From NCBI GenBank assembly GCA_965248435.1, contig OZ252100.1, positions 416,001 to 480,000 of the forward strand: DNA of 64,000 nucleotides, read 5' to 3'. Positions within the stretch are counted from its first letter, which is position 1. The number at the start of each line of letters is the position of its first letter. Source of the DNA: Candidatus Latescibacterota bacterium. Lineage in GTDB: Bacteria > Latescibacterota > UBA2968 > GCA-2709665. Position numbers and translations under genes: made by a program. Under the pieces are notes generated by a model. It did no database searches and was not told where the DNA came from. It saw only the letters and a list, made by a program, of their open reading frames with translations. Shown here one piece after another: positions 2,290 to 22,046 of this stretch.

Positions 2290-3045
2290 ATGAACTTCAT
2301 CCATCATCGATTCTCAGACAGCCTGCTTTCGATCCTTGCCCGGAGTCGCGAGAGGCAGAAGCGATTCACCCGTCTGCTTGCCGACCGACCGACGGGCGTC
2401 AGGATAAAAGTCCGCGAAAAAGCTGCCGACGCGGACCTGAAACGGGCCTACACCCAGTTGATGGCCAGGTCTTCTGCCATTTCCTCCCTGTTCTTGGCAG
2501 CCCTTTTCCTTCTCTTCTCCGAGTTTGAGCCGTCGGTTTACCTGGGCACAGCCCGAACACCGTTTATCCAGATACAGGACATCCCTGAAACCGTGCAGCG
2601 CTTTCAGCCTGAAACGCCACGTCCCGCGGAACCCCTGGCCGTTGAAGGTGAGGAGATCCCCGAGGACGTGACGATCGAATCTACCGAACTGGATCTGGAC
2701 AACGTCCCGGTCGACTTGCGTATGACGGGTCCGATGGCCATGGGGCCGCCGGTGGATGAAGCCTTGGACATTTCAGAGATCGAAGACAAACCCAAGTTCG
2801 TCTTCTGGCCGCTTCCGGAATACCCCGAAGCCGCCTTGAAAGATAAACTGGAGGGTGTCGTAAATGTGCGTGTCTTGGTTGGCAAGGACGGCAGGGTTGA
2901 GCAGGTGGAAGTGATCGGCGGCACAAAACTCTTCTTTGAGGCAGCGGTCGCGACGGCACGCAGATATCGTTTTCGGCCGGGTAAGCACGAAGGCGAAATC
3001 AGGAAGGTCTGGATGCCGATGCCGATTCGCTTTTCCCTGAAATAG
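2290..3045 (+). CDS. tonB: Energy transducer TonB family protein
   Basis: TM helix, Pro-rich linker, C-terminal PEYPEAA..EGVV.VRVLVGKDGRV..FRPGK..PIRF. Confidence 0.85.
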   Translation: MNFIHHRFSDSLLSILARSRERQKRFTRLLADRPTGVRIKVREKAADADLKRAYTQLMARSSAISSLFLAALFLLFSEFEPSVYLGTARTPFIQIQDIPETVQRFQPETPRPAEPLAVEGEEIPEDVTIESTELDLDNVPVDLRMTGPMAMGPPVDEALDISEIEDKPKFVFWPLPEYPEAALKDKLEGVVNVRVLVGKDGRVEQVEVIGGTKLFFEAAVATARRYRFRPGKHEGEIRKVWMPMPIRFSLK

Positions 3046-3152: not shown

Positions 3153-3863
3153 CTACCTTTCCAAATTGTGTCTAAACGTCAATTCCTGCAACAAAATCCC
3201 GAAACGCTCCCGAAGTGCCGGCTTCAAACGAAACGCCCTCCGATAGGCCACCGCGGCGTCGTCATAGAATCCCTGTGCCGTCAAGACTCGCCCCATCAGC
3301 ACATAGCTGGGGGCGTAGTTTGGTGCACGTTCTGTGGTTTTGGACGCCATCGCCAGTGCCTCCTCCAGGTTCCTTCGCCGCAGATAGATCCAGCCCAGCC
3401 CTTGATAGGCCTGGATGACACCGGGATCCTGGCGCAAAGCCAGCTTGTAGTGCTGCTCCGCTACTTCCAGGTCCCCCTGCTTTTGATGAAAGTATCCAAG
3501 AGCAACGCTGACGCCTGCATCCACCGAATCCAGAAGGGCGATCCGCCTGCAGACCTGGATGGCCTGAAAATAGGCATCCAGATTGGCATAGGCGCTGGCC
3601 AGGAGCCGGAGTGCCTGGAAGTCTGACGAGTCTCGACGAACGATTTCATTCAGTTCGGCAGCGGCAGCCGCAAACTCCCCCGCTTCCATGGCCTCCACGG
3701 GCGCCCGCAGATTTGGTGGAACGGAGGAGACGAGCGTATCCTGCAGCACGTCCCAAAAGGGATCGTCCACTTCCTGTGCCCGGGCTTGGCCGGAGTACAG
3801 ACTCAGACCTGCCCACACCCAAACGATCGGGATTATTACGAATCGAGCCAATTCCTGTTTCAC
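3153..3863 (-). CDS. Secreted tetratricopeptide repeat protein
   Basis: Signal peptide (ARA|QE) and multiple TPR motifs. Confidence 0.85.
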   Translation of the reverse strand: MKQELARFVIIPIVWVWAGLSLYSGQARAQEVDDPFWDVLQDTLVSSVPPNLRAPVEAMEAGEFAAAAAELNEIVRRDSSDFQALRLLASAYANLDAYFQAIQVCRRIALLDSVDAGVSVALGYFHQKQGDLEVAEQHYKLALRQDPGVIQAYQGLGWIYLRRRNLEEALAMASKTTERAPNYAPSYVLMGRVLTAQGFYDDAAVAYRRAFRLKPALRERFGILLQELTFRHNLER

Positions 3864-4519
3864 CCCCTGCGGGCCCGCCTCCGTCGTCTGCGCATCACAA
3901 GAGAATAGACGATAATCAACCCCGCGAACGCACCGACAACAGCACCGATGGTCTTGTTCGACAACTTCCCGAGTTCACCCTTGATCCGACCGTGTTGGTT
4001 TACGAAAGCCGTGTTGTCCGGCTCCAGATCCATGGCCTTTTCGATCAGGAGCAGGGCCTTTTCTGCATCCCCCTGCGCGAAGTGGAGTCTCGACAGATTG
4101 TAGTAGGCCGTCCCGATTTCCGGATCGATAGAGATCGTTTTTTCGTAAAGCCTTTTCGCACGCTCGGCTTTGCCCTGTTTTTCATACACGGATCCCAGGT
4201 TGTTATAGGCGTGGCCTTCTCTGGGTCGGAGTTTGATGACCTCCAGGTAGTACTTGCCGGCCAAGTCGTAACGTTTCTGATTGAAGCAAAGACCCGCGAG
4301 ATTATAGAGGGCGTCCGCGTGTCCGGGATCCAGTTTGATGATCTCATAATAAAGTTTGACCGCCCTCCTTGGGTTGATCGGGCGGTCTATCCCCAAATGA
4401 TATCGTTGTGCCTCCTCGAACAACTGCTGCACTTCCCCAGCGGGAGGCCTCTGCCCCTGGGCGCCCGACGCCGTCACAAAAATCAGCAGCCCCGGGAGAA
4501 TCCTCCAGATCCTGTTCAC
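3860..4519 (-). CDS. Sel1/TPR repeat protein with C-terminal membrane anchor
   Basis: Signal peptide, ALYNLA/AYNNLG TPR motifs, C-terminal TM helix followed by a poly-Arg tail. Confidence 0.85.
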   Translation of the reverse strand: MNRIWRILPGLLIFVTASGAQGQRPPAGEVQQLFEEAQRYHLGIDRPINPRRAVKLYYEIIKLDPGHADALYNLAGLCFNQKRYDLAGKYYLEVIKLRPREGHAYNNLGSVYEKQGKAERAKRLYEKTISIDPEIGTAYYNLSRLHFAQGDAEKALLLIEKAMDLEPDNTAFVNQHGRIKGELGKLSNKTIGAVVGAFAGLIIVYSLVMRRRRRRARRG

Positions 4520-5769
4520 GTTTCCTCACAGTCGCCGGATCCGTCGGAGCCTCCGACGATGATGAATGAGGTATTGTCCCTGCCCGAAACCGCAAAATCC
4601 TGTGAAGTGCGATAAGCGATTTGGCCTAAATCTGTGTCGGCGTCCATTCTCCCCATGAGGGACTGAACGTTGAGCTCGGGATGTTTGATGATCCCGTCGG
4701 TTCCCAACAGAAAGAGACCGGGGCCGATGACCACAGAGCCGCAGTCAATAAAGTCTTTGTTAAATCGCTTGTCTCCCAACCAGATACTGAGTTTTCTTCC
4801 AGTGATTCCATACCCTAAATCCCGGTTGAGCTGGTGGACCTGCCCCCCGTTGGCCTGGTATAGAAACGCATCGCTCACAGACGCCCAGTGGAGTTTGGCA
4901 CCCTCCCTGACCGCAGCGACAAGGCTGGACCGACTCCGTTGTACCGTAATGTCGGAGAGGACTGAACGGTGACACCGCGTGATCGTATTGATCAAAAACT
5001 GTCTAATGTCTTCGTCCGCCATCGCCCCATCGGTCTCGAACCCGAGCCGGAAGAGCTCGAGCATCTTGCTGACGACCAGCTCGCTGCTGCGAGCCCCGTG
5101 GTGGGCGTCCGCAACAACGAAAATCTCTTTTCCAGCCGCGCGGTGAAATCCGAGGGCGTCTTCGTTCGGCTCCCGAGACATTGGGTCCGCTCGGCCCCCG
5201 GGCGTAAACCCGAATGCGGCCTGGTCCGCACCCCTCAGGCCCCCTCCCAGGAAATCCCCTCGGCGGCGATGGAATCGTCCCAGAATCAGCAAATCGTGAT
5301 GAAATCCTGCCGCTTTCTGAGCGTCGATCTGAGCCTTGGTTCGGTCGATCACTTCCAGGCGGTGCGGTTTCTCATCATTACCATCCTCCCGGCGCTCGGA
5401 TAAATCCCCTTCCAATTCCCTCAAAAACCCTTCAAGCACCTGACGCGGCGCATCACCCGGCTTGGAGGACCCGTTACTTTCTCTAGAGGAAAACCGGTCA
5501 GTGTAGAATTGCTTCAGTGAGCGATGGAAATCTCGAATCGATACCAGGGGAGGATCGATTTGGACACCGCCCGCTTCTGTGCGGAATACGAGCACTGTTG
5601 CTTCCTGGAATCCCCCTCTGCTGAGGTCGAAGTGCAACAGATGGGCCTCGAGCTTGTCCACCCGGTCCGAACCTGTTAAGGGCCCCACACGAAGGTCCAC
5701 GACTCGGGGCGCGAAGACCGCAGAAAAGACGGGGTTTGAAGCCCCGGTGCTTGAGTGAGATAGATTCAT
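4516..5769 (-). CDS. PP2C/SpoIIE-like protein phosphatase domain protein with an uncharacterised N-terminal region
   Basis: NEDA, VVADAHHG, ASVSD, LLGTDG, GRDNTS motifs of the PPM fold. Confidence 0.75.
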   Translation of the reverse strand: MNLSHSSTGASNPVFSAVFAPRVVDLRVGPLTGSDRVDKLEAHLLHFDLSRGGFQEATVLVFRTEAGGVQIDPPLVSIRDFHRSLKQFYTDRFSSRESNGSSKPGDAPRQVLEGFLRELEGDLSERREDGNDEKPHRLEVIDRTKAQIDAQKAAGFHHDLLILGRFHRRRGDFLGGGLRGADQAAFGFTPGGRADPMSREPNEDALGFHRAAGKEIFVVADAHHGARSSELVVSKMLELFRLGFETDGAMADEDIRQFLINTITRCHRSVLSDITVQRSRSSLVAAVREGAKLHWASVSDAFLYQANGGQVHQLNRDLGYGITGRKLSIWLGDKRFNKDFIDCGSVVIGPGLFLLGTDGIIKHPELNVQSLMGRMDADTDLGQIAYRTSQDFAVSGRDNTSFIIVGGSDGSGDCEET

Positions 5770-5966
5770 TATCGACCCAATCTTAAGGGTCGGGAGAACA
5801 CAAGGTGCTCCCCGATAGGTTCCGGATCACAGTAGCAGACCTGCGATCTTATGACGCGAGATATTCACCGTACGGGCACGTCGAACAGTGCCTCCGTCCG
5901 CTATTCCGATACTCGATGCAGCGAGCCCGATACATCCTGCGATCCACGAACGACGATCACCGCAAT

Positions 5967-6155
5967 TTAGAAAGGATACATCACATTCAGTCGCTGGACC
6001 AAGCCGTCGCGCCTCGAGTCAGGGTCTTCCAGAATCACCTCAATCGCGGGACGACTCTGCCAGAGCCTCAGACTGAGGGCCCAGTCGATGTCCAGGCTGC
6101 GAAGGGCAAGGCGGGCAACCAGAAACATAGGAGTCAGAATTTTGATCGCAAACAA
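5967..6155 (-). CDS. Small hypothetical protein
   Basis: 62-aa ORF co-directional with its neighbours in an otherwise unexplained gap; no motif. Confidence 0.3.
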   Translation of the reverse strand: MFAIKILTPMFLVARLALRSLDIDWALSLRLWQSRPAIEVILEDPDSRRDGLVQRLNVMYPF

Positions 6156-6296
6156 ACCTGTTCAACTCCGTCTGGGGGTTGTGAACCACACCCGGAAACA
6201 GGCCGCCTGCCGGGCTTAATAGCATACAACAATACCCTTCCGCCAGTCAAGGCCTTACGCTTCTGACCGCAGAAGAAGGAAGCGATACTCGAAGAT

Positions 6297-7385
6297 TCAC
6301 TCGTCGATATTGGCCAACTGTTCGATCCAGAGTCGAAATCGGCCGATTTGGGCGGGCGTAAGGAAGGGTCCCCCCTGAGGCATTCGGTCGCCAAGGATCC
6401 CTTCGTTCTCCTCTAGCTTCAGGATGATGTAGCTCTCGTCAGGGGCGCCGGGTTTAACCCGGCTCAGAGATGCGGATTGCCGGCTCGGCACCTCCAGGAG
6501 ATTTTCCAGTGAGAGCCCGGCCTCCAGGACAAGCCCCTCCCCGGGAGGGAACTGCTCGCTGGCAGCGTGGCAGCCGACAAATGCACAGGTGGTGTCGAAA
6601 ACGGGCTGGATCTGTGTCGCGAAAGAGACCACCGGCGAAAACCTGAAGGAAAAGCGATCTCCTTTCCCCTCGGCGATTTCCTGACCCGAGAGGTCTTTTA
6701 CTGCCCTCACGACCAGGGTGTAAGCGACCCCCGGAGATTGAGGCGCAGTCGTCAACAGGACGCGATCCTCGCCTGCCGTACGAGCATCTATCACGGCGAG
6801 GGATGTTCCCTCACTCGATATAGCATAGTTTTCCGGAAGGCCTGCAGTCGCAGGATCGACCGGCTCACTGAAGGTGACCTCCAGACTGATGCTGTCTGCC
6901 GAAACGACGGCCAGGACCGACGGCGGGGCTGGAGGCGCCGTGGACAGGAGTGCTCCCTCATCTATCCAGCGCTTAATGGCATCGATCTCGGCCGCGGTCA
7001 AGGGTGTGCGGCCGAGCGGCATCTGGTCCCCGAAAATGGGACGACCTGCCGGGTCCTGGCCCTCCAGCTTCCAGACGAGCAGACTGTTGTCAGGATCCCC
7101 CGGAATAACCTGCGGCCCGTTTTTGCTGAGAGTCGGGTCCAGAAGTTCCACGAAGGAAACCTCAGACGTCAGGAGTAGTCCTGCTTGTTGATTGCCTGTA
7201 CCGCCCGGTTCGTGACAGCCTCCTGTGCAGGTCCGATTGAACACGGCCTGGACGTCGCGGTCGTAGAAAGCCGTGGCCCCTTCGGGTGCCTCCACGGATC
7301 GCGCCGTCGGAAACGGAATGGGGTCCCGCACGGCACTGCACCCGGCCACTAGAATGTACGCTATTGTGAAAAGCGATCGATTCAT
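6297..7385 (-). CDS. Lipoprotein with two planctomycete-cytochrome-C-like domains (CTGGCH, CAFVGCH) flanking an Ig-like domain
   Basis: ATG 7385, lipobox LVAGC; duplicated domain VQ.VF..C..CH...GL.L...V.PG.PD.S.L..KLE...GD.MP....LT.A.I....WI. Confidence 0.85.
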   Translation of the reverse strand: MNRSLFTIAYILVAGCSAVRDPIPFPTARSVEAPEGATAFYDRDVQAVFNRTCTGGCHEPGGTGNQQAGLLLTSEVSFVELLDPTLSKNGPQVIPGDPDNSLLVWKLEGQDPAGRPIFGDQMPLGRTPLTAAEIDAIKRWIDEGALLSTAPPAPPSVLAVVSADSISLEVTFSEPVDPATAGLPENYAISSEGTSLAVIDARTAGEDRVLLTTAPQSPGVAYTLVVRAVKDLSGQEIAEGKGDRFSFRFSPVVSFATQIQPVFDTTCAFVGCHAASEQFPPGEGLVLEAGLSLENLLEVPSRQSASLSRVKPGAPDESYIILKLEENEGILGDRMPQGGPFLTPAQIGRFRLWIEQLANIDE

Positions 7386-7392
7386 TCCGAAC

Positions 7393-8583
7393 CTACTGGT
7401 GGCAATATCCGCAGAAGCCGACTCCCGAAATTCGGGTTTCCAGGTGACACGCGTAGCAAAGGGAGTGCGGGTCTGAATGAAATTCCCCGTTGCCAGCTTG
7501 ATCTGCAAACCGGGTCCCGTGGGTTTTGGGATCCGTCCCTCGGACACCGTCAAAATCGACGTGGCACTGGATGCAGCTCGGGTCCTCCCCGTCCACGTCG
7601 TGACAGCTCACGCAGGTCTCGATATCCCGACGCGCCCACGAACCGTGCCGTCCCCCACCTGAACCGACGCCGGCCAGGACCCATGGCCTTGGATCGTCCG
7701 GTAGTGGGCCGTGCCAGACCGGCTTGAACCGGCGTTCGTCCCCTTCGATCCTGTGACATTCAACGCAGAAGTCCGTGGCGTGGCAGGTCGCGCACTGCCG
7801 TTCTTTGCCCGCCGCATCCAACGGGTGCGTAAACCTGTAGTTCAGCTCGTGCTGCCTTTGCAGGATCTGTCCGACCCTGCAACGGTTTTGAGGTGCGCCA
7901 GACACAGACCGCTCCGGCGGTGCCTCCAGGTCCACCAAAAGGGCACCGGCGTGGCAGTCTTCGCACCAGGTGTCCTGGTGACACTGTGCACAAGGCATTT
8001 CGCCCGCACGGGAATGCTGTTTATGCTCGTGTATCCAGTCCGCCCTGTGGCTCTGCGGTCGAATCACCTCGACTTTGGGATGGCAGGTCTCGCAATCGTA
8101 TGGCGCATCAGCGTCCTGGTGACACGTGAGGCACTCGGGCATGGTAGGCCAATTCTTCCTGCTCGCGTAGTCGGTCTCCGGCATCCCGCGATGGCAGTCC
8201 TGGCAGTCCAGTTCAAGTTTCTCGATATGGAAGTTGTGGGGGAAGTCGATCACGCGTTCGGGGTTCTCGAACGCCACAGGTTGGGCAGGATCCTGATGGC
8301 ACTTCTCACACTGTGCCGGATCTTTTACCTCTTCTTTGTGGCAGTCCGCGCAGGTCTCTTCCAACGGAAGCAGATTTTCCCCGGCGAGACTGCTGGATTG
8401 AGCCTTCACGTGGCAATCCCTGCAGAAAAGCCCCATGTCCATCAAGTGGTAGCGATGAGAGAACAGGATGATGGCGCTTCGATTCTGCTCCGGGATCGTG
8501 ATGGGGATATCGGACTCCTCCGCGGATGCATCCCACGGAAGGCACGAAAATGCCAGAGCGATCGCCAGGTGCGTCAGCTTCAC
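7393..8583 (-). CDS. Periplasmic multiheme cytochrome c (14 CxxCH; c7/c3-like N-terminal repeats)
   Basis: Signal peptide; 14 CxxCH motifs counted; FSHxxH/FPHxxH c7-type axial His motifs. Confidence 0.95.
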   Translation of the reverse strand: MKLTHLAIALAFSCLPWDASAEESDIPITIPEQNRSAIILFSHRYHLMDMGLFCRDCHVKAQSSSLAGENLLPLEETCADCHKEEVKDPAQCEKCHQDPAQPVAFENPERVIDFPHNFHIEKLELDCQDCHRGMPETDYASRKNWPTMPECLTCHQDADAPYDCETCHPKVEVIRPQSHRADWIHEHKQHSRAGEMPCAQCHQDTWCEDCHAGALLVDLEAPPERSVSGAPQNRCRVGQILQRQHELNYRFTHPLDAAGKERQCATCHATDFCVECHRIEGDERRFKPVWHGPLPDDPRPWVLAGVGSGGGRHGSWARRDIETCVSCHDVDGEDPSCIQCHVDFDGVRGTDPKTHGTRFADQAGNGEFHSDPHSLCYACHLETRISGVGFCGYCHQ

Positions 8584-9908
8584 TGGGACGCGCTCCTCGT
8601 TGGGCCTGGGCCGCGGAAGAACCAGGTGGTCGCCCTGAAAAAGAAACGAAGATCGTGGGAACTGCCAGGAAAGGGGTTGGCTCGTGACGCGAGCTTCAGG
8701 TCCTGCACCAGATCCTGCCCCTGTACGCTGATCGTAAGGTGACGGCTGGGTCGGTAGCTGAGACCGAGCGTGGACGTCAGCACTGTGCTGCGCGCTCCCT
8801 CGCCATCATAGGTTCTGAACTTCGAGAAATGAAAGCCCCCGTCGACCCAGATTTCAGGATTCAGGCGAAATCGGAGATTCGCCGTCGCACCGTCCCCGAT
8901 ACCGCCATATCCGCGCCTCCGAATGTAGCCCACGTAGCCATTCAACAGGTTTGCTCCCAAGTTGGCCCTGTATCCCTGGTCTGCTTCATAATCCACCGAG
9001 GAAAATTCGCCGAAGAGGCTAAAATGTCGATTGAACCGGTAGCTGCTCCGGAAGGAGAGTTCCTGATTGCTGCTCTGATTGAACAGGGCAAAGATGCTGT
9101 TCTGATCCACATACGGCGTCCGGTAAAGGTATTCCCCCGAGATCGTGAACCCGCCCTGATGATAACGCAATACCCCCTCCATCCGGCGCGTGCGCAGCTC
9201 GCCAGGGATGCTCAGATCCCATCGAAGCGTGAGGTTCGTGCGTTGGCCCAGGTCTCTACCGACGTCGAACCCGACCATCTCCTGCTCCACCTCTCCGGGG
9301 CGCACCTCCAGATCACTCAGTCCGGCCGCAATGCGAGCGTCTGACAGGTAGGTCTCGGTACGGCGGCTTCGACGGTAGAAACTGATCCCCAGTCGGGTAT
9401 CCTGGATCCGTGAGGAAACGAGATGAATCCCGAACATGTGTCCATCTCCCCACGAACTTACGCCTTCACGGTCAAGGGAGGGAAGCGAGCCCGCATAGGC
9501 GTCCAGGCGGGCGAGTCCGCCGATGTCCAGATCTGCCCTTACGCCGTCGATCCGGCCTACGCCCACGCCCGCGAAGACCAGCTGTCGCCCCCAGGTCACC
9601 ACGAACCGGTCCTGTGTATCCTTCCATCTGAAATAACCGTGATAAAAACGATGCTCGGGCTGGTTCCCAGCCCTGTTGAATAGATCCAACGAGGTTCGCA
9701 CGTAGGTCTGAAAAGAAAACTCCGGACGAGCCAGTCGCATCACCCTGAGGCGTGCGGACTGGTAGGCCCGGAGGTCGGCCCGGCTGACCGTATCTGGATA
9801 CGATCGCTCGAACGTGTAAAGGGCGGTCGTAAAACGCCCCGTCACTCCAGTGGCAGACGCACTGCCGGCCAGGAGCGACAGGGCGACTGTCGCTGCGAGA
9901 AGACGCAA
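8580..9908 (-). CDS. Outer-membrane beta-barrel protein (putative porin of a porin-cytochrome complex)
   Basis: Signal peptide, alternating hydrophobic/aromatic beta-strand pattern, aromatic-rich C-terminal strand; 4-bp overlap with the multiheme gene. Confidence 0.75.
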   Translation of the reverse strand: MRLLAATVALSLLAGSASATGVTGRFTTALYTFERSYPDTVSRADLRAYQSARLRVMRLARPEFSFQTYVRTSLDLFNRAGNQPEHRFYHGYFRWKDTQDRFVVTWGRQLVFAGVGVGRIDGVRADLDIGGLARLDAYAGSLPSLDREGVSSWGDGHMFGIHLVSSRIQDTRLGISFYRRSRRTETYLSDARIAAGLSDLEVRPGEVEQEMVGFDVGRDLGQRTNLTLRWDLSIPGELRTRRMEGVLRYHQGGFTISGEYLYRTPYVDQNSIFALFNQSSNQELSFRSSYRFNRHFSLFGEFSSVDYEADQGYRANLGANLLNGYVGYIRRRGYGGIGDGATANLRFRLNPEIWVDGGFHFSKFRTYDGEGARSTVLTSTLGLSYRPSRHLTISVQGQDLVQDLKLASRANPFPGSSHDLRFFFRATTWFFRGPGPTRSASQ

Positions 9909-9935
9909 ATCCCCTCCCCTTCAAAAAGCGTCTTG

Positions 9936-11024
9936 CTATACGCTCAAATCGAAAAACCTGATGAAGACCAGGAAATCGAAGAAATCGATCCTGTCATCCG
10001 GGCTCAGATCAAACTTCGGGTCGTATTCAGCGTCTCCAAGAACCTTGTTAAAGACCACCGTGAATTCGATGAAGTCAAAGAAGTTTACCGTGTTGTCCCC
10101 GGTAAAATCCCCCAACAACATCTTGGCGACCGACCACTGCATCTGTGCCACAGAATTCTCCCCACTCGACGCCGTCACCAAAACTTCGTCATCAGCCTCA
10201 CCGGTCGTCACGGCCAAGATGAAAGAGGAGCCGGTCTCAGCCTGCTCAATGCCGTTTGCGATCCAGACATAGGTCACGGCCTCGCCATCGGGATCTTCGG
10301 CAACTATAGAAAACGTAATTGTCTCTTCGGGCATACCCAGGACGGTCGTCCTGCCCGGGTCGGCACTCGTAATCTCTACCTCGCGATCGACGTTTTCGAC
10401 GACGATCTGAACCGCCTGGGAGACCTCCTCCTCTCCGTCGCTAGCGGTAAAAGTAATGTCGAACGTGTTTCCACCCTGTTCGAAATCAGGCACCCAGGAA
10501 AAGCTGTTGTCTGAGAGGCTGCCGCCAGAAGGCAGTCCACTCGCTGCGTATACAATCTGATCGTTGTCCTCGTCGGTGGCTTCCACGAGGAAAGTCAGCG
10601 TTTCGCCCTCCTTCACGGTCGCGTTCGGAATGGACGCAAGAACGGGCGCACGATTCTGGACTACCTCAGGCTTGCTGTTCGCATCTCCAGGGTTCGTGAC
10701 CTGGGCTCCCGAGATGGGAGAACCCGTGCCGTTCGGATCACCGAGCTCCTCACCATTCGTGAAGCCGTCGCCGTCAGAATCCATAGACGCGATCGAGGAA
10801 TTCCAGACCACATTGCCGGCGTTTCCTGAGGCTGTCAGAAATCCACCGTTGATTGCGTTACCGAACGAATTTCTCGCACCGCCTCCACTCGCACTAACGT
10901 GGCAGTTCGCACATCGATTCACGCTGCCATTCGGGATCTGATTGACCCGCTTGCTTCTGGCACTGACGGACGAAGCTGAGGTGAGAACCAGGACCAGACT
11001 GAGAAACAGGTAGCTGTAGGCCAT
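9936..11024 (-). CDS. Secreted protein: temptin-like domain with CANCH heme motif + cadherin/Ig-like domains + C-terminal dockerin/EF-hand pair
   Basis: ATG 11024 with GGGAGG SD; IPNG..CANCH..GGGARNSFG..W..DSDGDGFTNGEELGDP..NPG; NRAPV Ig repeat; GDFTGDNTVNFFDF...DLSPDDRIDFFDF. Confidence 0.85.
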   Translation of the reverse strand: MAYSYLFLSLVLVLTSASSVSARSKRVNQIPNGSVNRCANCHVSASGGGARNSFGNAINGGFLTASGNAGNVVWNSSIASMDSDGDGFTNGEELGDPNGTGSPISGAQVTNPGDANSKPEVVQNRAPVLASIPNATVKEGETLTFLVEATDEDNDQIVYAASGLPSGGSLSDNSFSWVPDFEQGGNTFDITFTASDGEEEVSQAVQIVVENVDREVEITSADPGRTTVLGMPEETITFSIVAEDPDGEAVTYVWIANGIEQAETGSSFILAVTTGEADDEVLVTASSGENSVAQMQWSVAKMLLGDFTGDNTVNFFDFIEFTVVFNKVLGDAEYDPKFDLSPDDRIDFFDFLVFIRFFDLSV

Positions 11025-11188
11025 ACACGCCCTCCCACGGATGATGAAGTTGTAAAATCTGGGGAACTCCCAGTAGAAACATATGGCTGACCTCCGAGCT
11101 GCCCGGGTATGGCTTTCCGGGCAACTCATTGCTACCTTATACGCTTTCGTGGGTAGATGGATGCAGGAAAATTCGCGTGGGGACGCAG

Positions 11189-11318
11189 AAAAGAAAAAAC
11201 CCCGGCCCGCTCGATCGCCTGTTATTGAGATTCGCTCACTCAACGGCGTGGAGAGGTCCGTCACGTGAGGTCATAACGGCGGGGGAGAACTGAGCAGGCC
11301 GGGCAACTTCCACTGATC
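11189..11318 (-). ncRNA. Candidate structured RNA / attenuator (long hairpin ending in a U-tract)
   Basis: TATAAC -10 at 11325-11330; nested stems CCCGGCCUGCUC/GAGCGGGCCGGG, GCC-GUUAU-GA/UC-AUAAC-GGC, CUCAC/GUGAG, GACGG/CCGUU; followed by GUUUUUUCUUUU. Confidence 0.55.
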
Positions 11319-11384
11319 AAGATAGTTATACAGAAAACATAACAAACCCGACGAAGGGACGCAAGGATCAGGACGGCGGAAATC

Positions 11385-12464
11385 CTATCGTGCAGGACGC
11401 CAAACGATTCCGGATTCATCCATGCCGAAGGTCCCGTCGCTCATCTGCCCGATCTGATCGACCCGCTTTTCCCCGTTCAGATCGGTTATCTCCATCGCGA
11501 TCGATGCCTCGGCCTGAAAGGTCCTCGCGGCCGTCCAGGACTCATCCGTTTCCACATTACCTGAAGACGATATCTTAAATCCCTGCAGCTGAAGCAATTG
11601 TACCCGAACATCCTCTCCGACCTCGCCCTCGACTCGCAACGTCGCGCGCGCAGGACGATTGAGGACCATCACCAGCTCATCCCTTCTTTTGGAAACCTCC
11701 TCCAGATCTTCTTTGAGCTTATCCAGATTCCGAACAGACAGCAGGTGCTTTCTGATCTCCTCGATCAACCTGAGAAAGACCTTGTGTCGGCTGGGATTTC
11801 GGCTGATGTAATGTTTGTTGTTACGGGTCAGACCGCCGACCAAAACCCGCAGAATGAACTCTTCAAGCGCTTTGTCTACCTCTTCGAACGGTTTCCCCTT
11901 CACCGCCTTGTAAAACGTCGTGAGATCGACCACCAGTTCCCGCTTCCCTGGCTTCAGGATGCCTCCGAAGGACATGTCGACCTGGCGATAGGTCTTGATG
12001 AACTTTCGAGCGGCGAGGCTATTGGTCTGGGAGAGTGCCTCTATTTCCTCCTTCACATTTTGCTGGTCAGCTCGGAATCTTCGCAGCCTCGCCAGATCGG
12101 CAGAATGGGTGCCGAGGCAGACCTCTGATTCGAGAAGGCTCCCTTTTACGGTCGCACCCAGATCTAACCTGAGACTGCTCTTATCCACATCTCCCGACGC
12201 GACGACTTCGCGCGCCTTGATCTTCGCGTGGCAGACGGATCTTTCCAAAATGGCCTGTCCTGCCACCTCGATCAGGCAAGGATGGTTGGGTGCGCCCGTG
12301 ACTTCCCCGCAGATCAGGAGGTTTCCGTCACCCCGTATGACGCCCCCCTGCGTAACGTCCCCAGACACAACACCGTCGTGGTCGTGAAAGTCGACCTCTT
12401 TCGTAACGGTCACTTCTTCGACCTTGTGAACCTTTCGTTTCGGCTCCCGCCCAAGCTCCGTCAT
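11385..12464 (-). CDS. FapA/DUF342-like beta-helix and coiled-coil protein
   Basis: VSGDV..GG.I...GNL.I.GEV beta-helix repeats followed by a coiled coil and a VEGEV..V C-terminal segment. Confidence 0.6.
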   Translation of the reverse strand: MTELGREPKRKVHKVEEVTVTKEVDFHDHDGVVSGDVTQGGVIRGDGNLLICGEVTGAPNHPCLIEVAGQAILERSVCHAKIKAREVVASGDVDKSSLRLDLGATVKGSLLESEVCLGTHSADLARLRRFRADQQNVKEEIEALSQTNSLAARKFIKTYRQVDMSFGGILKPGKRELVVDLTTFYKAVKGKPFEEVDKALEEFILRVLVGGLTRNNKHYISRNPSRHKVFLRLIEEIRKHLLSVRNLDKLKEDLEEVSKRRDELVMVLNRPARATLRVEGEVGEDVRVQLLQLQGFKISSSGNVETDESWTAARTFQAEASIAMEITDLNGEKRVDQIGQMSDGTFGMDESGIVWRPAR

Positions 12465-12485
12465 TTCGCTAATCCCGCGCTGGAC

Positions 12486-12881
12486 CTACGCGTCCGCTCC
12501 TAATTCCCGAATCGTTCCCCGCTTGTCGACAAGCTCCCTCGTTAACCCGAACAGATCCTGTAACAGGTTGACGCGCACCGGCTTGGAGAGGACCAGATCG
12601 GCATACTCCCTCACTGTCTCCGGGACATCGTGCGTGTAGCCTGAGATGATTGCAATGACGGACCAGGGCATCATACCGCGGATCACGGAAAGGATATCCA
12701 GTCCGCTCACACCAGCCATCTTGATATCCAGAGTCACGAGGTCATAGGCCCCCTGCACAGCCTTCGCCAGGGCTTCCTCGCCACTCTCGGCGGTATCCAG
12801 CTTCTCGCATTCCAGGGTCTTCATACAGCTCACCATGAAGTCCCGGACATCCGCATCATCGTCTACTATGAGTACTTTCAT
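12486..12881 (-). CDS. Single-domain response regulator (receiver)
   Basis: KVLIVDDD, DLVTLDIKM, ISG, LSKP. Confidence 0.92.
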   Translation of the reverse strand: MKVLIVDDDADVRDFMVSCMKTLECEKLDTAESGEEALAKAVQGAYDLVTLDIKMAGVSGLDILSVIRGMMPWSVIAIISGYTHDVPETVREYADLVLSKPVRVNLLQDLFGLTRELVDKRGTIRELGADA

Positions 12882-12913
12882 ATGACCTCCAAAACCAGGC
12901 TTAGCCGCCCAAA

Positions 12914-13654
12914 TCAGGCAACTCTTCCAAACTGTCGAGCGAAATCCAGAAAGTCCAGAAAGTCCACCGCTTCGTTGTGGTTGAGATCGAACCTCTCGTC
13001 ATAGTGGATCTCTCCCAACCGGGTTCCGAATCGAAGGACGAATCCAAGGAAGTCGATGAAGTCGACCTTCCCACTATCGTCGAAATCGGCAGTTATCGTG
13101 TCCTTTTCCTCACCTCCTTGTCGCGTCATTCTGAGAATTCCCTGGGGGGGGGCCGTTTCTGCAACCAGGTCGGAGACCAGATCCTCGAACTCCCCCAGGG
13201 GGACGGTCTGGATCAGCCTGAGTGTATCCTCTCCGGCCGAATAAGAGAAGGTGTCCCGAACCCCGGGCGTCGGAATATTCTCAAGGATCAAAAGAGGTTC
13301 CTCCAGCCGGTATGTCCCTGCCGACCTTGCTGTATCCTCGTAGTCGGTCTGGATCGGAATCCCAAACAAGGAAAAAGACAGGCTTACGCTCAGGATGTAG
13401 CCTGCCTCGTAGCTTCCGTCCGGGCTGAGGGTGACGCGACCCGACACCCTCCCCGAAAAGGAGAGTCCAGAAATGGCTGAGAGCAGATCTGGCGATGCAT
13501 AAGCCTGCAAGGCAACCCTATCCGCTTCCCAGGTCCCAAGAGGGTCTCCTCCGGTGACGGCAGGCGCCTCGCTGAGTATCTCAGCATCTGCCCGAAATGC
13601 TGAGATCGCCAAAAAGCACAATACTGGAAGCACGGCCCTACACGACGCGCGCAC
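12914..13654 (-). CDS. Secreted protein with C-terminal dockerin/EF-hand pair
   Basis: Signal peptide; ADFDDSGKVDFIDF...FDLNHNEAVDFLDFLDFARQFG. Confidence 0.8.
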   Translation of the reverse strand: MRASCRAVLPVLCFLAISAFRADAEILSEAPAVTGGDPLGTWEADRVALQAYASPDLLSAISGLSFSGRVSGRVTLSPDGSYEAGYILSVSLSFSLFGIPIQTDYEDTARSAGTYRLEEPLLILENIPTPGVRDTFSYSAGEDTLRLIQTVPLGEFEDLVSDLVAETAPPQGILRMTRQGGEEKDTITADFDDSGKVDFIDFLGFVLRFGTRLGEIHYDERFDLNHNEAVDFLDFLDFARQFGRVA

Positions 13655-13899
13655 GACTCAGGGTTCGCCCAGAGTCATCGTGTCTCCGAACATCATAACA
13701 TCAATATAAATAAATGACATTACCCAAAAAAGCGGAACGTTGGGAATTCGTGGATAAACAGACTGGCGGAAATCCCTCACCCGCCATGGAGGATTTCCAC
13801 CATTTAACGCGAAGCTGCCGTGGAGAACATCCCGGATCAAAGGTTATAAACTAATTTAAAATAATGTATTATGAGGTATTTTCCGCTCTTTCTCCGTTT

Positions 13900-13915
13900 C
13901 GGTACGGAAAATGCA
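13900..13915 (+). promoter_or_regulatory. Putative sigma54 (-24/-12) promoter of the histidine kinase
   Basis: cGGTACGgaaaATGCa (GG-N10-GC), with an AT-rich IHF-like tract upstream. Confidence 0.45.
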
Positions 13916-15269: not shown

Positions 15270-15680
15270 ATGATTCGTCCGACGCTCGCTGACAGTATCG
15301 TACAAGCCGCTCTGGTGACTCGAATCCTCATCGTAGATGATGATGACCAGATGCGGTCCCTGCTCGGAAAAATGCTCGACGGCACAGGACACGATGTAGT
15401 GGTTTCTCCAGATGGAAAGGCCGGGCTGGATCTAATCAGCGAGCAACCTCCGGACGTAGTCGTTACCGATATCCTGATGCCGGAGACGGACGGGCTGGAA
15501 CTTATCTATACACTGCGGCGCGACTTCCCGGACGTCAAGATTATCGCGATCTCGGGGTGTGGGGAAACGGGATATCTGAATTTTCTCTCCGAAGCCGAGG
15601 AGTTCGGCGCCGATGAAACCTTGCGAAAACCGTTTACTCGCGCCCAATTATTGGAAACTATAGAACGCGTCCTTTTCTAG
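15270..15680 (+). CDS. Single-domain response regulator (receiver)
   Basis: ILIVDDD, VVTDILMPETDG, ISG, LRKPF. Confidence 0.92.
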   Translation: MIRPTLADSIVQAALVTRILIVDDDDQMRSLLGKMLDGTGHDVVVSPDGKAGLDLISEQPPDVVVTDILMPETDGLELIYTLRRDFPDVKIIAISGCGETGYLNFLSEAEEFGADETLRKPFTRAQLLETIERVLF

Positions 15681-15730
15681 ATGACCTCCGGGGTGATTGT
15701 TGTTTCTCCCCCTCTCCCCCATTTTATCGC

Positions 15731-15761
15731 CGTAGAGACGCCCCACCGGGGCGTCTCTACG
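15731..15761. repeat. GTAG-type REP palindrome
   Basis: Perfect 14-bp inverted repeat CGTAGAGACGCCCC-acc-GGGGCGTCTCTACG between convergent genes. Confidence 0.75.
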
Positions 15762-15772
15762 ATTATCCGGAT

Positions 15773-18295
15773 TCAAATCCCGACCTGGTAGGCGATCTTC
15801 ATCAAGACGGCCCGGTTTCGCTGAGCGATCCCGCTTTCAGTGCCGAACGCCTGATCGAACACAAAAAAGAGGTTGCTTCCGGGTCGAAATCGATAGTTTA
15901 CGAGAAAGTTGGTACTTACCAGCTCCTTGTCGTTATTCCACTGGGCAAACAGCTTGAAAAAGAAATCGGTCGTCAAGGAGTAGATCACCCTGGCGCCAAG
16001 GGTGTTCAAACTCAGCTTCCCCTGGGGCAGCCGAATCCAATTGCTCACGTGGCGAATCCCCACTGAAAAACGGCCCGTCGGCCGAGCCTCGCCTTCCAGC
16101 AATGTGGCAAACCTGTGCCCCGTGAAATACCCCCCTGCTTGAAGCCTGATACGGACGTAGGCCTTTCTTGAGCGATCCGTCCACGGCCCAGTTGTAAACG
16201 TGGTGAAAGTATACGACCCCGCCGGGATCTCGACCTCTTCCCGCCGATCGGAGGGCGCAAACGGTTCATCGACCTCTTCGTGCTGAGTCGTAACCGCGAT
16301 CTGGTAATTGTGCCCGGAGTTGAAAATCGTCCACCACGAGAGTTCACTCTCCAGAGACTTCACCCGGTTCTCCCGGTCAGTGATCATATTGAATTCAGGT
16401 CCGATCGAAAAGTAGCGGATCCCGCCCAGGCCGGGCCTTGGTCTCGCCTTCATCCGGCCAAAATATCTGCGAAAACCCTCGAGGCCTTCCCTTCGGTTCA
16501 CGAATCCCACAGCCGGTTCGAATTCCGGATCTACATTCAGGAATCCGAGCTTTCCCGACAAGCGGTTTCCACAATAGATCAACCTCCCGAACTGCGCGTT
16601 GCCCCGAGTTCCGGTTTCAGAATCCCAGGTGCGCGCAACGAACCCCTGCAGGCTTAGCGACGCCGCGGGAGAATAGCTGAAATCGACGCCGCCTGCACGA
16701 TTGTAGTGACCCCATCCTGAATCGGACAGCTTCGACTGCTTGTTGACGAAGATGAACCCGACGTTAGACCGGGCGAGCAGGTCTCGCTTCACCCTGATTG
16801 CAGAAAAGTTGCTGCGTGGGATGAACAGGCTGTCGCCATCTTCCGTAAAGGACCGACTGTCCGTGAGCACGTTGAGCGCGCCCACACTCGTTCGATTCGC
16901 CTTCCCTACGATTTTTGTCGCGAGCCGCACGGGCACCGGCCTGTCTTCCTCCAATCCGATTCGCCGGCTGTAAAACAGGAGCGTCGGCGGCAGGGTTCCC
17001 CCGCTCCGATCCTCCGCGGCCTCGCCGAAATCGAACAGGTTGGCCCCCTCTAAGAAGAATCCCCGCTTTTCGGGGAAAAAGAGCGAAAACTGGGACAGGT
17101 TGACCTGCTCCTGGTCCCCTTCCACCTGGGCAAAATCAGTATTGTAGGAGAGGTCTGCCGTTAAGTTGGGTGTGAGTCCGTATCGCAGATCCACTCCGGA
17201 CTCAAAGCTCGGGTTCTCCTCGGGATTATCACCCTCTCGATCGATTGAGGTACCTGGAAGCATATAGGGCGTCACGTTGAGCAGCCTCCTGGAGCGGAGT
17301 CCTTCGAGACCGCGCAGTTCTCCAATGTCCGAGGTCCAGTAGCGCGCCCTGCTCGAGGATGCCCGGCCGCCGCCAACGACGAGACGCACCTCTTCGTTCT
17401 TGTAGGAGATGTTGCGTCCAAGATTGATTCCCCACACGATCGGTTCTCCAAGCCTGAATCGGAGTTGATTCAAGGGGATAGCAATCTCTGCCGTCCACCC
17501 CGTTGCGTGTTGCCTGGTACGGACCTCCCAGATACAGTCCCAGTCACCGTTAGAGGTCCGCCCTCCCTCCGAGAGTATGATATCCCGTTGAGCCCCAAGC
17601 GGATTTACGAAGAAGAAGAAACCGGTTTGTCTGTCGTTGTAAGTGTCGAGTAGGATCTGCACATTGTCGTCGTGCCGCAGGCTCGAATCCCTGCGCATAT
17701 TGTTCGCGACGACCCGGCCCGAATCGGAGAGGAAACACTCGAAGCCGAAATAGATCTTCTCCTCGTCATAGAGGATCCGAACGACCGTTCGCTCTGTACT
17801 CGGCATCCAGTAGTCCGGGTCCCGCTGGACGAAGCCTTCAATGGCCCTGGCCTCGAGCCAGACCGGGTCGTCCAATCGGCCATCCAGGCGAGGACCCTTT
17901 GGCACGTTTTCTGCATAGACGATGCGGCGCGCGCGGTGTCCGGGAGGGGGTGAACCTTCAATCGGCATCACGCGGCTGTGAACCTTGAACTGCTCGCCAC
18001 TGTCTGAGAGAACTCGTGCTACAAGCATCTCACCCAGATCCTTGATCACCTCCAGCGTTCCCACCTCGTTTCGACCGTTACCGGGAAGCACTCTCAACTG
18101 GCTCCAGACCGGAGCCGACCCGGAGAGTCCCTGCACGTAGACCAGGTCTCCAGATACGTGACGTATCTCCCCCACCTTTTGATCTATCCGCGGAGCCAAG
18201 CGTCCTGCTGACCCCAAACTGGAGTCAGCCCACAGGCCGGGCACCCCGATCGCGAGGGTCGCCATAAGTAAGACAGGTATGCCAAATTTGCTCAA
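15773..18295 (-). CDS. DUF5916 / carbohydrate-binding family 9-like domain + beta-barrel outer-membrane protein
   Basis: Signal peptide; P.LDGRLDD.VW, LDTYND, GWTAEIAIP, NTDFAQVEGD, LFFPEKRGFFLEG, FYSRRIG. Confidence 0.9.
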   Translation of the reverse strand: MSKFGIPVLLMATLAIGVPGLWADSSLGSAGRLAPRIDQKVGEIRHVSGDLVYVQGLSGSAPVWSQLRVLPGNGRNEVGTLEVIKDLGEMLVARVLSDSGEQFKVHSRVMPIEGSPPPGHRARRIVYAENVPKGPRLDGRLDDPVWLEARAIEGFVQRDPDYWMPSTERTVVRILYDEEKIYFGFECFLSDSGRVVANNMRRDSSLRHDDNVQILLDTYNDRQTGFFFFVNPLGAQRDIILSEGGRTSNGDWDCIWEVRTRQHATGWTAEIAIPLNQLRFRLGEPIVWGINLGRNISYKNEEVRLVVGGGRASSSRARYWTSDIGELRGLEGLRSRRLLNVTPYMLPGTSIDREGDNPEENPSFESGVDLRYGLTPNLTADLSYNTDFAQVEGDQEQVNLSQFSLFFPEKRGFFLEGANLFDFGEAAEDRSGGTLPPTLLFYSRRIGLEEDRPVPVRLATKIVGKANRTSVGALNVLTDSRSFTEDGDSLFIPRSNFSAIRVKRDLLARSNVGFIFVNKQSKLSDSGWGHYNRAGGVDFSYSPAASLSLQGFVARTWDSETGTRGNAQFGRLIYCGNRLSGKLGFLNVDPEFEPAVGFVNRREGLEGFRRYFGRMKARPRPGLGGIRYFSIGPEFNMITDRENRVKSLESELSWWTIFNSGHNYQIAVTTQHEEVDEPFAPSDRREEVEIPAGSYTFTTFTTGPWTDRSRKAYVRIRLQAGGYFTGHRFATLLEGEARPTGRFSVGIRHVSNWIRLPQGKLSLNTLGARVIYSLTTDFFFKLFAQWNNDKELVSTNFLVNYRFRPGSNLFFVFDQAFGTESGIAQRNRAVLMKIAYQVGI

Positions 18296-18454: not shown

Positions 18455-18463
18455 TTCATCGTT

Positions 18464-18642
18464 GCAAGGGTAGAGGCGCGGTCTTTCATCAGTAGCCGGC
18501 GCAGGAAGGCGAAACCGAACCGTCGGACGAAAGGGAAAGGCTGCCGAAGTCTGTTGTCCTTTTCGCCTGGGCAGCGGGCTGGGCCAGTGGTTAAGATCCG
18601 CTGGACTGTCACAGGGCACGGCCCCGTGGAGCGCTCTCTTGC
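18464..18642 (+). ncRNA. Lysine riboswitch
   Basis: AGAGGCGCG...AGUAG...GAAAGGGAAAGGCUGCCGAAG...GCUGGGCC...GGACUGUCAC...GUGGAGCGCU consensus; P1 GCAAGGG/CUCUUGC; located upstream of asd. Confidence 0.93.
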
Positions 18643-18667
18643 CGGTACGACCGCGCTGACAAGATTC

Positions 18668-18705
18668 GGCCGGCGATGCCGCACTCCTGGCACGCTGGCC
18701 TTTTT
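18668..18705 (+). terminator. Riboswitch expression-platform intrinsic terminator
   Basis: GGCCGGCG-ATGCC...GGCA-CGCTGGCC stem followed by TTTTT, just before the asd SD. Confidence 0.75.
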
Positions 18706-18726
18706 ATATCCCTGAAGGAGAAGCCG

Positions 18727-20749: not shown

Positions 20750-20803
20750 CCTTCCCTCCCTCACGCTTCACTCAAGTCCGCTTCACTTTCAAAGGAGATC
20801 GGC

Positions 20804-21856: not shown

Positions 21857-21976
21857 GGGGAATTCTACGACATCTATTCGTCCAGTGGAATCCTGAACTG
21901 CTTGTCGCCGGAGCAGGCCTCCGTGCCTGCCTGGACTTTCGGTCATCATTCGACAACGACCCGGTTTACTTCTTCC

Positions 21977-22020
21977 AAAAAAAAAACGGCGCCAGCGAAT
22001 TCGCATTCGCCGGCGCCGTC
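21977..22020 (-). terminator. Intrinsic terminator
   Basis: ACGGCGCCGGCGAAT/ATTCGCTGGCGCCGT stem followed by a long T run on the minus strand. Confidence 0.85.
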
Positions 22021-22046
22021 TCCTTGGGGACCGCAATCGCGGGGGG

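Follow-up and report, generated by a model that had tools for sequence, protein, structure and literature searches.

The four consecutive genes at positions 6297-11024 of the 64-kb window (the whole stretch of DNA that was analyzed) raise the question whether their products form an electron conduit across the outer membrane. Through porin-cytochrome conduits, Gram-negative bacteria pass electrons to, or receive them from, minerals, electrodes, and partner cells. To our knowledge, almost all of the mechanistic information on such conduits comes from Shewanella and Geobacter. The original prediction for this locus was a porin-cytochrome conduit of unfamiliar architecture. Our analysis suggests, with a probability of roughly 0.6, that the products of the second and third genes (B and C) are a conduit of the porin-cytochrome (Pcc) type, with a clade-specific partner (D) and an accessory protein (A).

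All four genes are on the minus strand and co-directional, and all four products are predicted to be exported. Gene A is located at 9936-11024 (ATG start, 362 aa), B at 8580-9908 (TTG start, 442 aa), C at 7393-8583 (GTG start, 396 aa), and D at 6297-7385 (ATG start, 362 aa). The coordinates and the strand were confirmed, as were the spacings given in the original prediction, 27 bp between A and B, -4 bp between B and C (a GTGA overlap), and 7 bp between C and D. Longer open reading frames, starting at 11264 for A and at 7553 for D, were discarded, as the signal peptide of A and the lipobox of D begin at internal ATG codons. In the region 5600-13900, scans for sigma-70 promoters and terminators gave counts that are not above those for shuffled sequences. 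No inner-membrane quinol dehydrogenase was found in the 64-kb window, and no multiheme cytochrome other than C. A gene for a diheme cbb3-type class I cytochrome is located nearby, at 20804-21856.

B is an outer-membrane, porin-like β-barrel with a signal peptide. The model of B from AlphaFold2, based on a 35-sequence alignment, contains 22 strands (mean pLDDT 86.6, pTM 0.79), consistent with the barrel that had been proposed for this gene. This number is within the range of 18-22 strands given for Pcc porins (PMC4245776), and the stop codon of B overlaps the start codon of C, as noted above. No match to B was found in Pfam or NCBIfam at E≤0.1, and the best match of its profile to PDB sequences has an E value no lower than 0.2. 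A search through the PDB with Foldseek finds generic large barrels (FimD usher, AlgE, and porins), with TMq up to 0.53, and no specific fold relative. Similarity to MtrB is not detectable in the sequence and not specific in the fold. At an E value of at most 1e-3, the family profile of B recovers 989 cluster representatives. B is presumed to be the sheath of the conduit.

C is an exported c-type cytochrome with a signal peptide and 14 CxxCH motifs, and no lipobox is conserved among its relatives. Thirteen of the motifs are invariant and one is nearly invariant in an alignment of 36 relatives, which also contains 12 further invariant His residues. The last motif, FCGYCH, forms the extreme C-terminus of the protein and is invariant in the 36 relatives. 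C is the only frame in the window with more than two CxxCH motifs, and therefore the count of 14 hemes is not due to chance. It lies within the range of the exported periplasmic cytochromes of Pcc systems (5-14 CxxCH motifs). Pfam finds Cytochrome_C7 (1.1e-16) as well as Cytochrom_c3_2. The profile of C matches GSU1996 (3ov0, E 1.5e-29), ActA of ACIII (7e-18), and MtrA (6r2q_A, 6.9e-6) in the PDB, in each case in the N-terminal part only, and for MtrA no single stretch passes alone. Modeled by itself with AlphaFold2, C yields a poor structure (mean pLDDT 59.4) that is confident only for residues 30-150, approximately. C is presumed to be the heme wire through barrel B.

The pairing of these two genes is widespread. 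Of 80 related loci, 78 have a barrel HMM match immediately upstream of the cytochrome and in the same orientation, and in the other two the cytochrome is at a contig edge. Where upstream DNA is present, the adjacency is strict (78/78 loci), across at least seven phylum labels and often with overlapping stop and start codons, a pattern that would be difficult to account for if the two proteins did not work together. In a collection with one genome per species, the cytochrome is encoded in at least 522 of the 598 stretches scanned, indicating a very wide distribution of a single barrel/14-heme module among FCB bacteria. The window has the same organization, a barrel gene directly upstream of a gene for a cytochrome of about 390-410 aa with 14 CxxCH motifs. 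Judged from these sequence comparisons, the B-C pair is a member of this large FCB-wide module. It belongs to a Latescibacterota-type clade of nine loci (the window and L001-L008), with an SH-aLRT value of 100. Co-occurrence in other FCB genomes had been set as a check on the prediction, and it was found both for the pair and, in 8 of 8 clade loci, for B, C, and D together. Use of the barrel tree for a mirror-tree comparison was dropped, as shared ancestry alone would yield a correlation and the L005 entry was a wrongly called ORF.

The partners of the module are swapped by clade. A small c554-like tetraheme cytochrome is encoded upstream in 37 of the 78 loci, and a cytochrome with at least three hemes is encoded downstream in 48 of them (47 with CX3-4CH motifs). 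Neither is present in the window or in L001-L008. In the Ignavibacteriota loci, the pair is preceded by a NapC/NirT-like cytochrome, Rieske/cytochrome b, an 11-heme cytochrome, and a c554-like tetraheme, and the 14-heme cytochrome is followed by multiheme lipoproteins with the Geobacter C4xC-C2xCH motif (OmcB motif). These cytochrome-rich clusters, together with the recurrence of the pair, agree with the porin and multiheme logic of the original prediction. The partners in KSB1 and Calditrichota are upstream multihemes. The locus of Stygiobacter electus, an organism on which our literature search found nothing, contains a 16-heme/cytochrome b561 fusion.

A cluster of this type from Ignavibacterium album, also of the FCB group, has been published as a Pcc (IALB_1840-1837; Shi et al. 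2014, PMC4245776). In that paper, IALB_1838 (400 aa, 14 hemes) is the largest periplasmic cytochrome among the Pcc systems, and its neighbors are the porin-like IALB_1839 and IALB_1837, with an atypical motif. As in I. album, a porin-like barrel is followed in the window by a cytochrome of about 400 aa with 14 CxxCH motifs. C is 38-41% identical to the I. album-type cytochromes in end-to-end alignment, and the barrels are recognized by the same HMM. The link of B and C to Pcc systems runs through this member, and the criterion used in 2014 was a BLAST E value below 0.01 to OmbB/OmaB/OmcB of G. sulfurreducens (PMC4245776). In the literature available to us, the I. album-type module is a genomic prediction rather than a biochemically demonstrated conduit. 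The architecture of the B-C pair is known already, and what differs in the window is the presence of D and A as partners, so that the claim of unfamiliarity holds only in part. Unlike I. album, the window has no upstream c554-like tetraheme, no downstream multiheme lipoprotein with the OmcB motif, and no adjacent NapC/NirT, Rieske, or cytochrome b genes, and has A and D instead.

The Pcc of Geobacter sulfurreducens (OmbB-OmaB-OmcB) also combines a porin-like protein of 18-22 strands with a periplasmic multiheme cytochrome into a conduit through the outer membrane, but this cytochrome has 8 hemes compared to 14 in C (PMC4245776), and its 12-heme outer lipoprotein has no equivalent in the window. 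An OmcB-like lipoprotein is reported to be absent from some accepted Pcc members as well, in Anaeromyxobacter and Kuenenia (PMC4245776). The principle of a cytochrome in a barrel is shared with Shewanella MtrCAB, Sideroxydans MtoAB, and Rhodopseudomonas PioAB, and the Mto and Pio systems resemble the window in having no outer multiheme cytochrome. However, the barrel in the window has no match to the MtrB/PioB family in Pfam or NCBIfam, and MtrA has 10 hemes instead of 14 and matches C only weakly, as described above. The combination of an MtrB/PioB barrel and a decaheme MtrA-family cytochrome is not found in the window. Our literature search found nothing on porin-cytochrome systems in Latescibacteria, and the cluster is not described in one paper found for Latescibacterota (PMC11323493).

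D contains a lipobox (LVAGC), one CX3CH motif (C53-H58), and one CX4CH motif (C267-H273). Two PSCyt1/FoxE-type c-heme domains flank an Ig domain of the Big_5/SbsA type, and the Pfam matches are PSCyt1 (24.3 bits, against a cut-off of 22) and Big_5 (24.7 bits). Residues C53, C57, H58, M122, and P123 of the first heme domain and C267, C272, H273, M335, and P336 of the second are invariant among 25 aligned relatives. At the homologous positions, distant members have CxxCH or CX4CH, and the Cys spacing ranges from 2 to 4. The lipoprotein with non-canonical motifs described in the original prediction is confirmed, but it is not a multiheme cytochrome. D itself contains no CxxCH motif and gives no match to GSu_C4xC__C2xCH, and the cluster has no OmcB-like multiheme lipoprotein of the kind known from Pcc systems. 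All eight clade loci have D-homologous sequence immediately downstream of C, compared with none of the 72 others, although in four of the eight it is broken into several frames, reflecting either errors in the assembly of the MAGs or decay of the gene. D is a diheme lipoprotein specific to the Latescibacterota-type clade, where it replaces the OmcB-like multiheme lipoprotein.

The profile of D matches the Ig domain of SbsC (4.4e-9), the heme domain of hydrazine synthase alpha (5e-6), and FoxE of Rhodobacter ferrooxidans (5mab), with a summed E value of 1.5e-5 in the last case and weak values for each domain alone (i-E 0.43-0.59). Both domains of FoxE align to D, and the motifs C..CH, PGDP.S, RMP.G, and WI..GA are in the same order in the two heme domains, but the similarity is weak. 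D differs in being a lipoprotein with an Ig spacer and with CX3CH and CX4CH spacing. We know of no lipobox or Ig domain in FoxE.

In the Pcc-type conduit that we favor, the 22-strand barrel in the outer membrane would sheathe the mostly bis-His C, threaded through it, and C would carry electrons across this membrane, linking periplasm and cell surface. D, with two His/Met-type hemes of the PSCyt1/FoxE class separated by the S-layer-type Ig domain, would take the place of the OmcB-like multiheme lipoprotein at the end of the wire. It would be the redox partner at one end, most likely the outer one, and its His/Met ligation points to a higher-potential couple than that of the classical metal reducers. 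A could be docked at the surface by a T9SS-anchored cohesin-like protein (see below). We infer these locations of D and A. If D is the working partner, it would open a way to test what tunes the redox window of such conduits, and perhaps their direction, and one protein of the large and uncharacterized PSCyt1 family would gain a function.

The same proteins may instead serve electron uptake, for Fe(II) or Mn(II) oxidation by the logic of Mto and Pio, with D facing the periplasm as a higher-potential acceptor that feeds an aerobic chain. MtoD and PioC act in this manner, downstream of MtoAB and PioAB. The Met-Pro axial-ligand signatures in D are typical of class I cytochromes, its profile matches both heme domains of an Fe(II) oxidoreductase, FoxE, and the cbb3-type class I cytochrome gene mentioned above would also fit such a chain. 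Moreover, a cluster without an extracellular multiheme cytochrome corresponds to the "mto-like" criterion of Fortney et al. (PMC6137239). The match to FoxE, however, is weak (i-E 0.4-0.6 for each domain) and reflects mainly the shared PSCyt1 signature. The lipobox of D, its S-layer-type Ig spacer, and its location in the operon slot that in relatives is taken by outer lipoprotein cytochromes favor the surface, and the eight clade loci show no linkage of the cluster to an oxidase gene or any other respiratory gene. We consider uptake to be unlikely, but worth serious attention. It is very improbable that there is no conduit at all, with B acting as an ordinary barrel for diffusion or export, and C as a periplasmic electron-storage or reductase-associated cytochrome that is merely co-transcribed: such a view can draw on the generic Foldseek matches of B (ushers, AlgE, and porins), its missing family assignment, and the resemblance of the N-terminal half of C to soluble or periplasmic c7-type proteins and to ActA of ACIII, but it conflicts with the strict adjacency of the two genes and with the Ignavibacteriota loci, where the cytochrome chain runs from a quinol-oxidizing complex to lipoprotein cytochromes.

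A has a Sec-type signal peptide and one CxxCH motif, located within a Temptin_C domain (48.2 bits, cut-off 27), as well as Ig-like domains, with a match to Big_9 (34.8 bits), and a TSP3-like Ca site. Its C-terminus resembles an X-module/dockerin. Pfam Dockerin_1 scores 16.7 bits, under the cut-off of 22.9, and phmmer finds solved X-module/type II dockerin chains with E values of 2.6e-5 (2b59_B) and 3.2e-5 (5k39_B). Two Ca-loop repeats are present, as duplicated DFDGDGxVxFxDF loops that can be aligned. Judged by these matches, the dockerin is genuine, and A is the CxxCH/Ig/dockerin protein that had been described. However, only three of the eight clade genomes contain A, and orthologs beside the barrel are found only in L003/L006 (one MAG) and L005 (truncated by the contig end). 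A is a lineage-variable accessory rather than a conserved member of the module, and the proposal of a dockerin-tagged cytochrome as part of it is not sustained.

Not noticed in the original prediction, a gene in the same window (40980-41825, minus strand) encodes an exported 281-aa protein that combines a cohesin-like domain with a C-terminal sorting domain of the T9SS. Pfam scores are 22.5 bits for Cohesin (cut-off 24.1), 42.7 for FlgD_ig, and 26.6 for Por_Secre_tail. An ortholog (44% identical, Cohesin 26.1 bits) is encoded at 15549-16352 of L008, about 5.3 kb downstream of the B-C-D cluster of that locus. We infer a tie between this candidate docking partner and the cluster, and the protein could hold A at the surface.

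As in known cohesin-dockerin systems, the duplicated-loop dockerin of A resembles the X-module/type II dockerin of CipA, with a cohesin-like protein encoded in the same window. The arrangement here differs from those systems in occurring in a Gram-negative host of the FCB group, in having a one-heme cargo, and in having, instead of a scaffoldin, a single cohesin-like module joined to a T9SS sorting domain. Neighboring dockerin/cohesin proteins and multiheme cytochromes have been reported for ANME archaea (PMC9012536), and our literature search found nothing relevant on dockerins in Latescibacteria. A distinctly doubtful extension of the favored model is that an ancestral wire in the style of the metal reducers was re-plumbed, with a FoxE-like His/Met diheme lipoprotein swapped in, and that some lineages added a dockerin-tagged heme protein docking on a T9SS-anchored cohesin, giving a surface "cytochrome-some" with a high-potential extracellular partner. 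The coupling might, for example, be to the oxidation of Fe(II)/Mn(II), to oxidants bound to particles, or to a neighboring cell, and this would be the first redox chain organized by cohesin and dockerin in a Gram-negative bacterium. The dockerin-heme and T9SS-cohesin proteins also offer a secondary clue to the possible organization of redox proteins at the cell surface.

A second dockerin-tagged exported protein (246 aa) is encoded at 12914-13654 on the minus strand, recognized by a dockerin HMM built here (5.3e-31). Its orthologs are located upstream of the barrel in L001, L002, L004, and L008, making it a syntenic neighbor in the clade. These upstream matches had been considered for A as a core component, which was rejected as they are orthologs of the 246-aa protein. 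A response regulator (12486-12881, from Pfam) is encoded 3' of this gene, followed by a 359-aa protein (11385-12464).

The four genes lie on the minus strand in the order A (9936-11024, ATG start, 362 residues), B (8580-9908, TTG start, 442 residues), C (7393-8583, GTG start, 396 residues) and D (6297-7385, ATG start, 362 residues). They are tightly packed, with 27 bp between A and B, a 4-bp overlap (GTGA) between B and C, and 7 bp between C and D. Purine-rich, GGAGG-like stretches are found 5' of A and of B. All four products carry export signals at their start: Sec-type leaders in A (the CxxCH/Ig/dockerin protein), B (the β-barrel) and C (the cytochrome), and a lipobox (LVAGC) in the lipoprotein D. 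Among all frames of the 64-kb window, only C has more than two CxxCH motifs. The original description of the four genes, a candidate porin-cytochrome conduit at 6297-11024, is right at the coordinates given, and the four-gene feature is real.

B has no sequence match in Pfam, NCBIfam or the PDB. Searched against 1.84 billion proteins, its profile yields 989 cluster representatives with E≤1e-3, including 202 with E≤1e-30. The predicted fold is a 22-strand barrel (35-sequence alignment; mean pLDDT 86.6, pTM 0.79), for which Foldseek returns only generic large barrels (ushers, AlgE, porins; TMq ≤0.53). With the standard formula for barrel geometry and an assumed shear number of about 24, 22 strands give a Cα diameter of about 40 Å. 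TonB-dependent receptors have a comparable diameter and hold a plug domain inside, and the lumen of B is thus plausibly wide enough for a slim heme chain, as a geometric estimate rather than a measurement on the model.

C has 14 CxxCH motifs, 13 of them invariant and one nearly so among 36 relatives, together with 12 further invariant His residues. The N-terminal third is made up of c7-type repeats, and the final motif (FCGYCH) is at the very C-terminus. In the PDB, the C profile matches GSU1996 (1.5e-29) and ActA of Alternative Complex III (7e-18), whereas MtrA is matched only at 6.9e-6. The AlphaFold2 prediction for C alone is poor (pLDDT 59.4).

Related loci were collected by a pattern scan with the cytochrome alignment, using one genome per species. 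At least 598 stretches were obtained, and a relative is encoded by at least 522 of them; the comparison below uses the best 80 loci. Among these best 80 (of at least 522), 78 have a match to the barrel HMM as the immediate upstream neighbor of the cytochrome, in the same orientation; in the two misses (L013 and L017) the cytochrome is at a contig edge. Barrel and cytochrome frames are separated by under 200 bp, and often overlap, in 74 of these 78. By record label, the best 80 loci belong to Ignavibacteriota (34), Bacteroidota (17), Latescibacterota (4), Gemmatimonadota (4), Calditrichota (2), Kryptoniota (2) and Chlorobiota (1), and 16 are unassigned, many of them titled KSB1.

The partners of the B-C pair vary by clade. 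A small c554-like tetraheme is encoded upstream in 37 of the 78 loci, and a downstream cytochrome with at least three hemes is present in 48, 47 of which have CX3-4CH motifs, mostly with a lipobox. In L041, from an I. album MAG, the order is a NapC/NirT-like hexaheme, a Rieske protein, cytochrome b, an 11-heme cytochrome, a c554-like tetraheme, the barrel, the 14-heme cytochrome, a pair of lipoprotein cytochromes (Geobacter C4xC-C2xCH motif in the first) and a CcmF-like protein. In L031 (Stygiobacter electus), a 16-heme/cytochrome b561 fusion is found upstream of the same core. The first four genes of L041 (1136-5641) and the fusion in L031 (3643-6087) are candidates for the inner-membrane entry into the pathway. 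No inner-membrane quinol dehydrogenase was found within the 64-kb window.

In the cytochrome tree (79 sequences, quick tree search, no bootstrap; L038 and L069 were omitted as they have no complete cytochrome ORF), the window groups with L001-L008, loci of the Latescibacterota type, in a nine-row clade with a long stem (SH-aLRT 100). A tetraheme or a multiheme lipoprotein is absent from every locus of this clade (L001-L008). Downstream of D come genes for two TPR proteins and for a protein with a TonB C-terminal domain (3153-4519, minus strand, and 2290-3045, plus strand), whose synteny with the cluster is kept in most of L001-L008. In the window and in L003/L006, D and the TPR genes are separated by a PP2C-like gene (4516-5769). 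Because the clade genomes are related, this wider synteny is a weak indicator of function.

The core itself has been described before. Shi, Fredrickson and Zachara (2014; PMC4245776) list a Pcc cluster in I. album, with IALB_1839 as the porin-like protein, IALB_1840 as a periplasmic cytochrome and IALB_1837 as a cytochrome of the outer membrane whose motif is atypical, and give the range of Pcc systems as 18-22 strands and 5-14 hemes. Later genomic papers (PMC7399161, PMC6137239) again ascribe Geobacter-like pcc porins to Ignavibacteria, Melioribacter and Caldithrix. The gene order of L041 agrees with the description of the I. album cluster in PMC4245776, which places the B-C core with the described kind: it is a further member of the Pcc-type module predicted from genomes in these papers. 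The architecture had originally been called unfamiliar; the novelty is in the partner set, the core being already known as a predicted module. Within the main texts of open-access papers, no account of porin-cytochrome systems in Latescibacteria was found, and the variant with A and D as partners is not described in PMC11323493.

D consists of two PSCyt1-class heme domains flanking a Big_5/SbsA Ig domain. Residues Cys53, Cys57, His58, Met122 and Pro123 of the first site are invariant in 25 relatives, as are Cys267, Cys272, His273, Met335 and Pro336 of the second, and in more remote members the equivalent positions are occupied by CxxCH or CX4CH. Judged from these alignments, the odd Cys spacings are predicted to reflect heme sites of variable length that carry a Met-Pro signature of axial ligation, rather than cysteines occurring by chance. 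FoxE, an Fe(II) oxidoreductase, aligns to the D profile over both of its heme domains (weakly for each, with a summed E of 1.5e-5), as does the heme domain of hydrazine synthase alpha. Sequence homologous to D is found 3' of C in all eight loci L001-L008 and in none of the 72 others (best 80 of at least 522). In L001, L002, L005 and L008 one ORF spans it; in L003, L004, L006 and L007 it is broken into two to four frames, L003 and L006 being near-duplicate contigs of one MAG. The broken frames in these four of the eight loci reflect either assembly error or gene decay.

We favor, at a probability of roughly 0.6, an arrangement in which B would form a sheath around C, C would serve as a heme wire through the outer membrane, and D would be a clade-specific partner of this wire, probably at the surface. 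The surface position of D is suggested by its lipobox, its S-layer-type spacer and its place in the operon, which is that of the outer cytochromes of the relatives. The predicted Met-ligated hemes of D suggest a couple of higher potential than that of the bis-His multihemes they replace, which makes electron uptake or Fe(II) oxidation, with D in the periplasm, a serious rival, if a distinctly less probable one. That B and C do not form a conduit at all is improbable given how strictly they are paired.

In A, the sole CxxCH is contained in a Temptin_C-type domain (48.2 bits, cut-off 27), a stretch that the NCBIfam GEGP diheme model also matches, far under its cut-off. In a protein atlas this N-terminal domain groups with proteins of Latescibacterota and Gemmatimonadota that consist of Temptin_C alone. 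A also has a calcium site of the TSP3 type and an Ig domain (Big_9). The C-terminus, from about residue 265 to residue 362, is sub-threshold for Pfam Dockerin_1 (16.7 versus 22.9 bits) and matches solved dockerins, the CipA X-module with type II dockerin (2b59_B, E 2.6e-5) and 5k39_B (3.2e-5); its two DFDGDGxVxFxDF-type loops are aligned with five other dockerin tails of related loci. A is not conserved in the clade: clear orthologs are found only in L003/L006 and in L005, where the contig end cuts the gene (three of eight genomes, including the window).

The window has another exported protein with a dockerin tag (12914-13654, minus strand), and the weaker matches to A in L001, L002, L004 and L008 are its orthologs. 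Its gene, a stand-alone response regulator (12486-12881, minus strand) and a 359-residue protein of unassigned family with weak MinC/bactofilin-like hits (11385-12464, minus strand) form a block that is syntenic upstream of the barrel in the same four loci.

A 281-residue exported protein (40980-41825, minus strand) combines a cohesin-like domain at about residues 40-190 (22.5 bits, cut-off 24.1) with a C-terminal sorting domain of the T9SS. The L008 ortholog (15549-16352; 44% identical) scores 26.1 bits, above the cut-off, and is located about 5.3 kb downstream of the B-C-D cluster there. Proteins with a dockerin tag, A among them, could be held by a single cohesin anchored at the surface in this way, and the 40980-41825 product is a possible anchor for both dockerin-tagged proteins of the window. 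Dockerin and cohesin proteins are discussed in PMC9012536 for genomes of ANME archaea that also encode multiheme cytochromes.

Elsewhere in the window, a heme-biosynthesis block (42004-47350, minus strand) encodes glutamyl-tRNA reductase, porphobilinogen deaminase, a uroporphyrinogen-III synthase/methylase fusion, a siroheme-synthase-like protein and a CcsA-type cytochrome c assembly protein. A 350-residue ORF (20804-21856, plus strand) contains two CxxCH motifs and scores 30.1 bits against Cytochrome_CBB3, with a cut-off of 27; a longer antisense ORF (20789-22036) is probably spurious. The latter and the large ORFs at 24303-26840, 27096-28709 and 28403-29599 have no family match above cut-off, that at 27096-28709 having only a sub-cut-off match to PD40 (17.4 versus 20.9 bits). 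An 840-residue protein (15773-18295, minus strand) has DUF5916 and a weak CBM9-like match. A lysine riboswitch (18463-18644, plus strand; 89.3 bits, E 4e-22) is located directly 5' of an aspartate-semialdehyde dehydrogenase-like gene (18676-19809).
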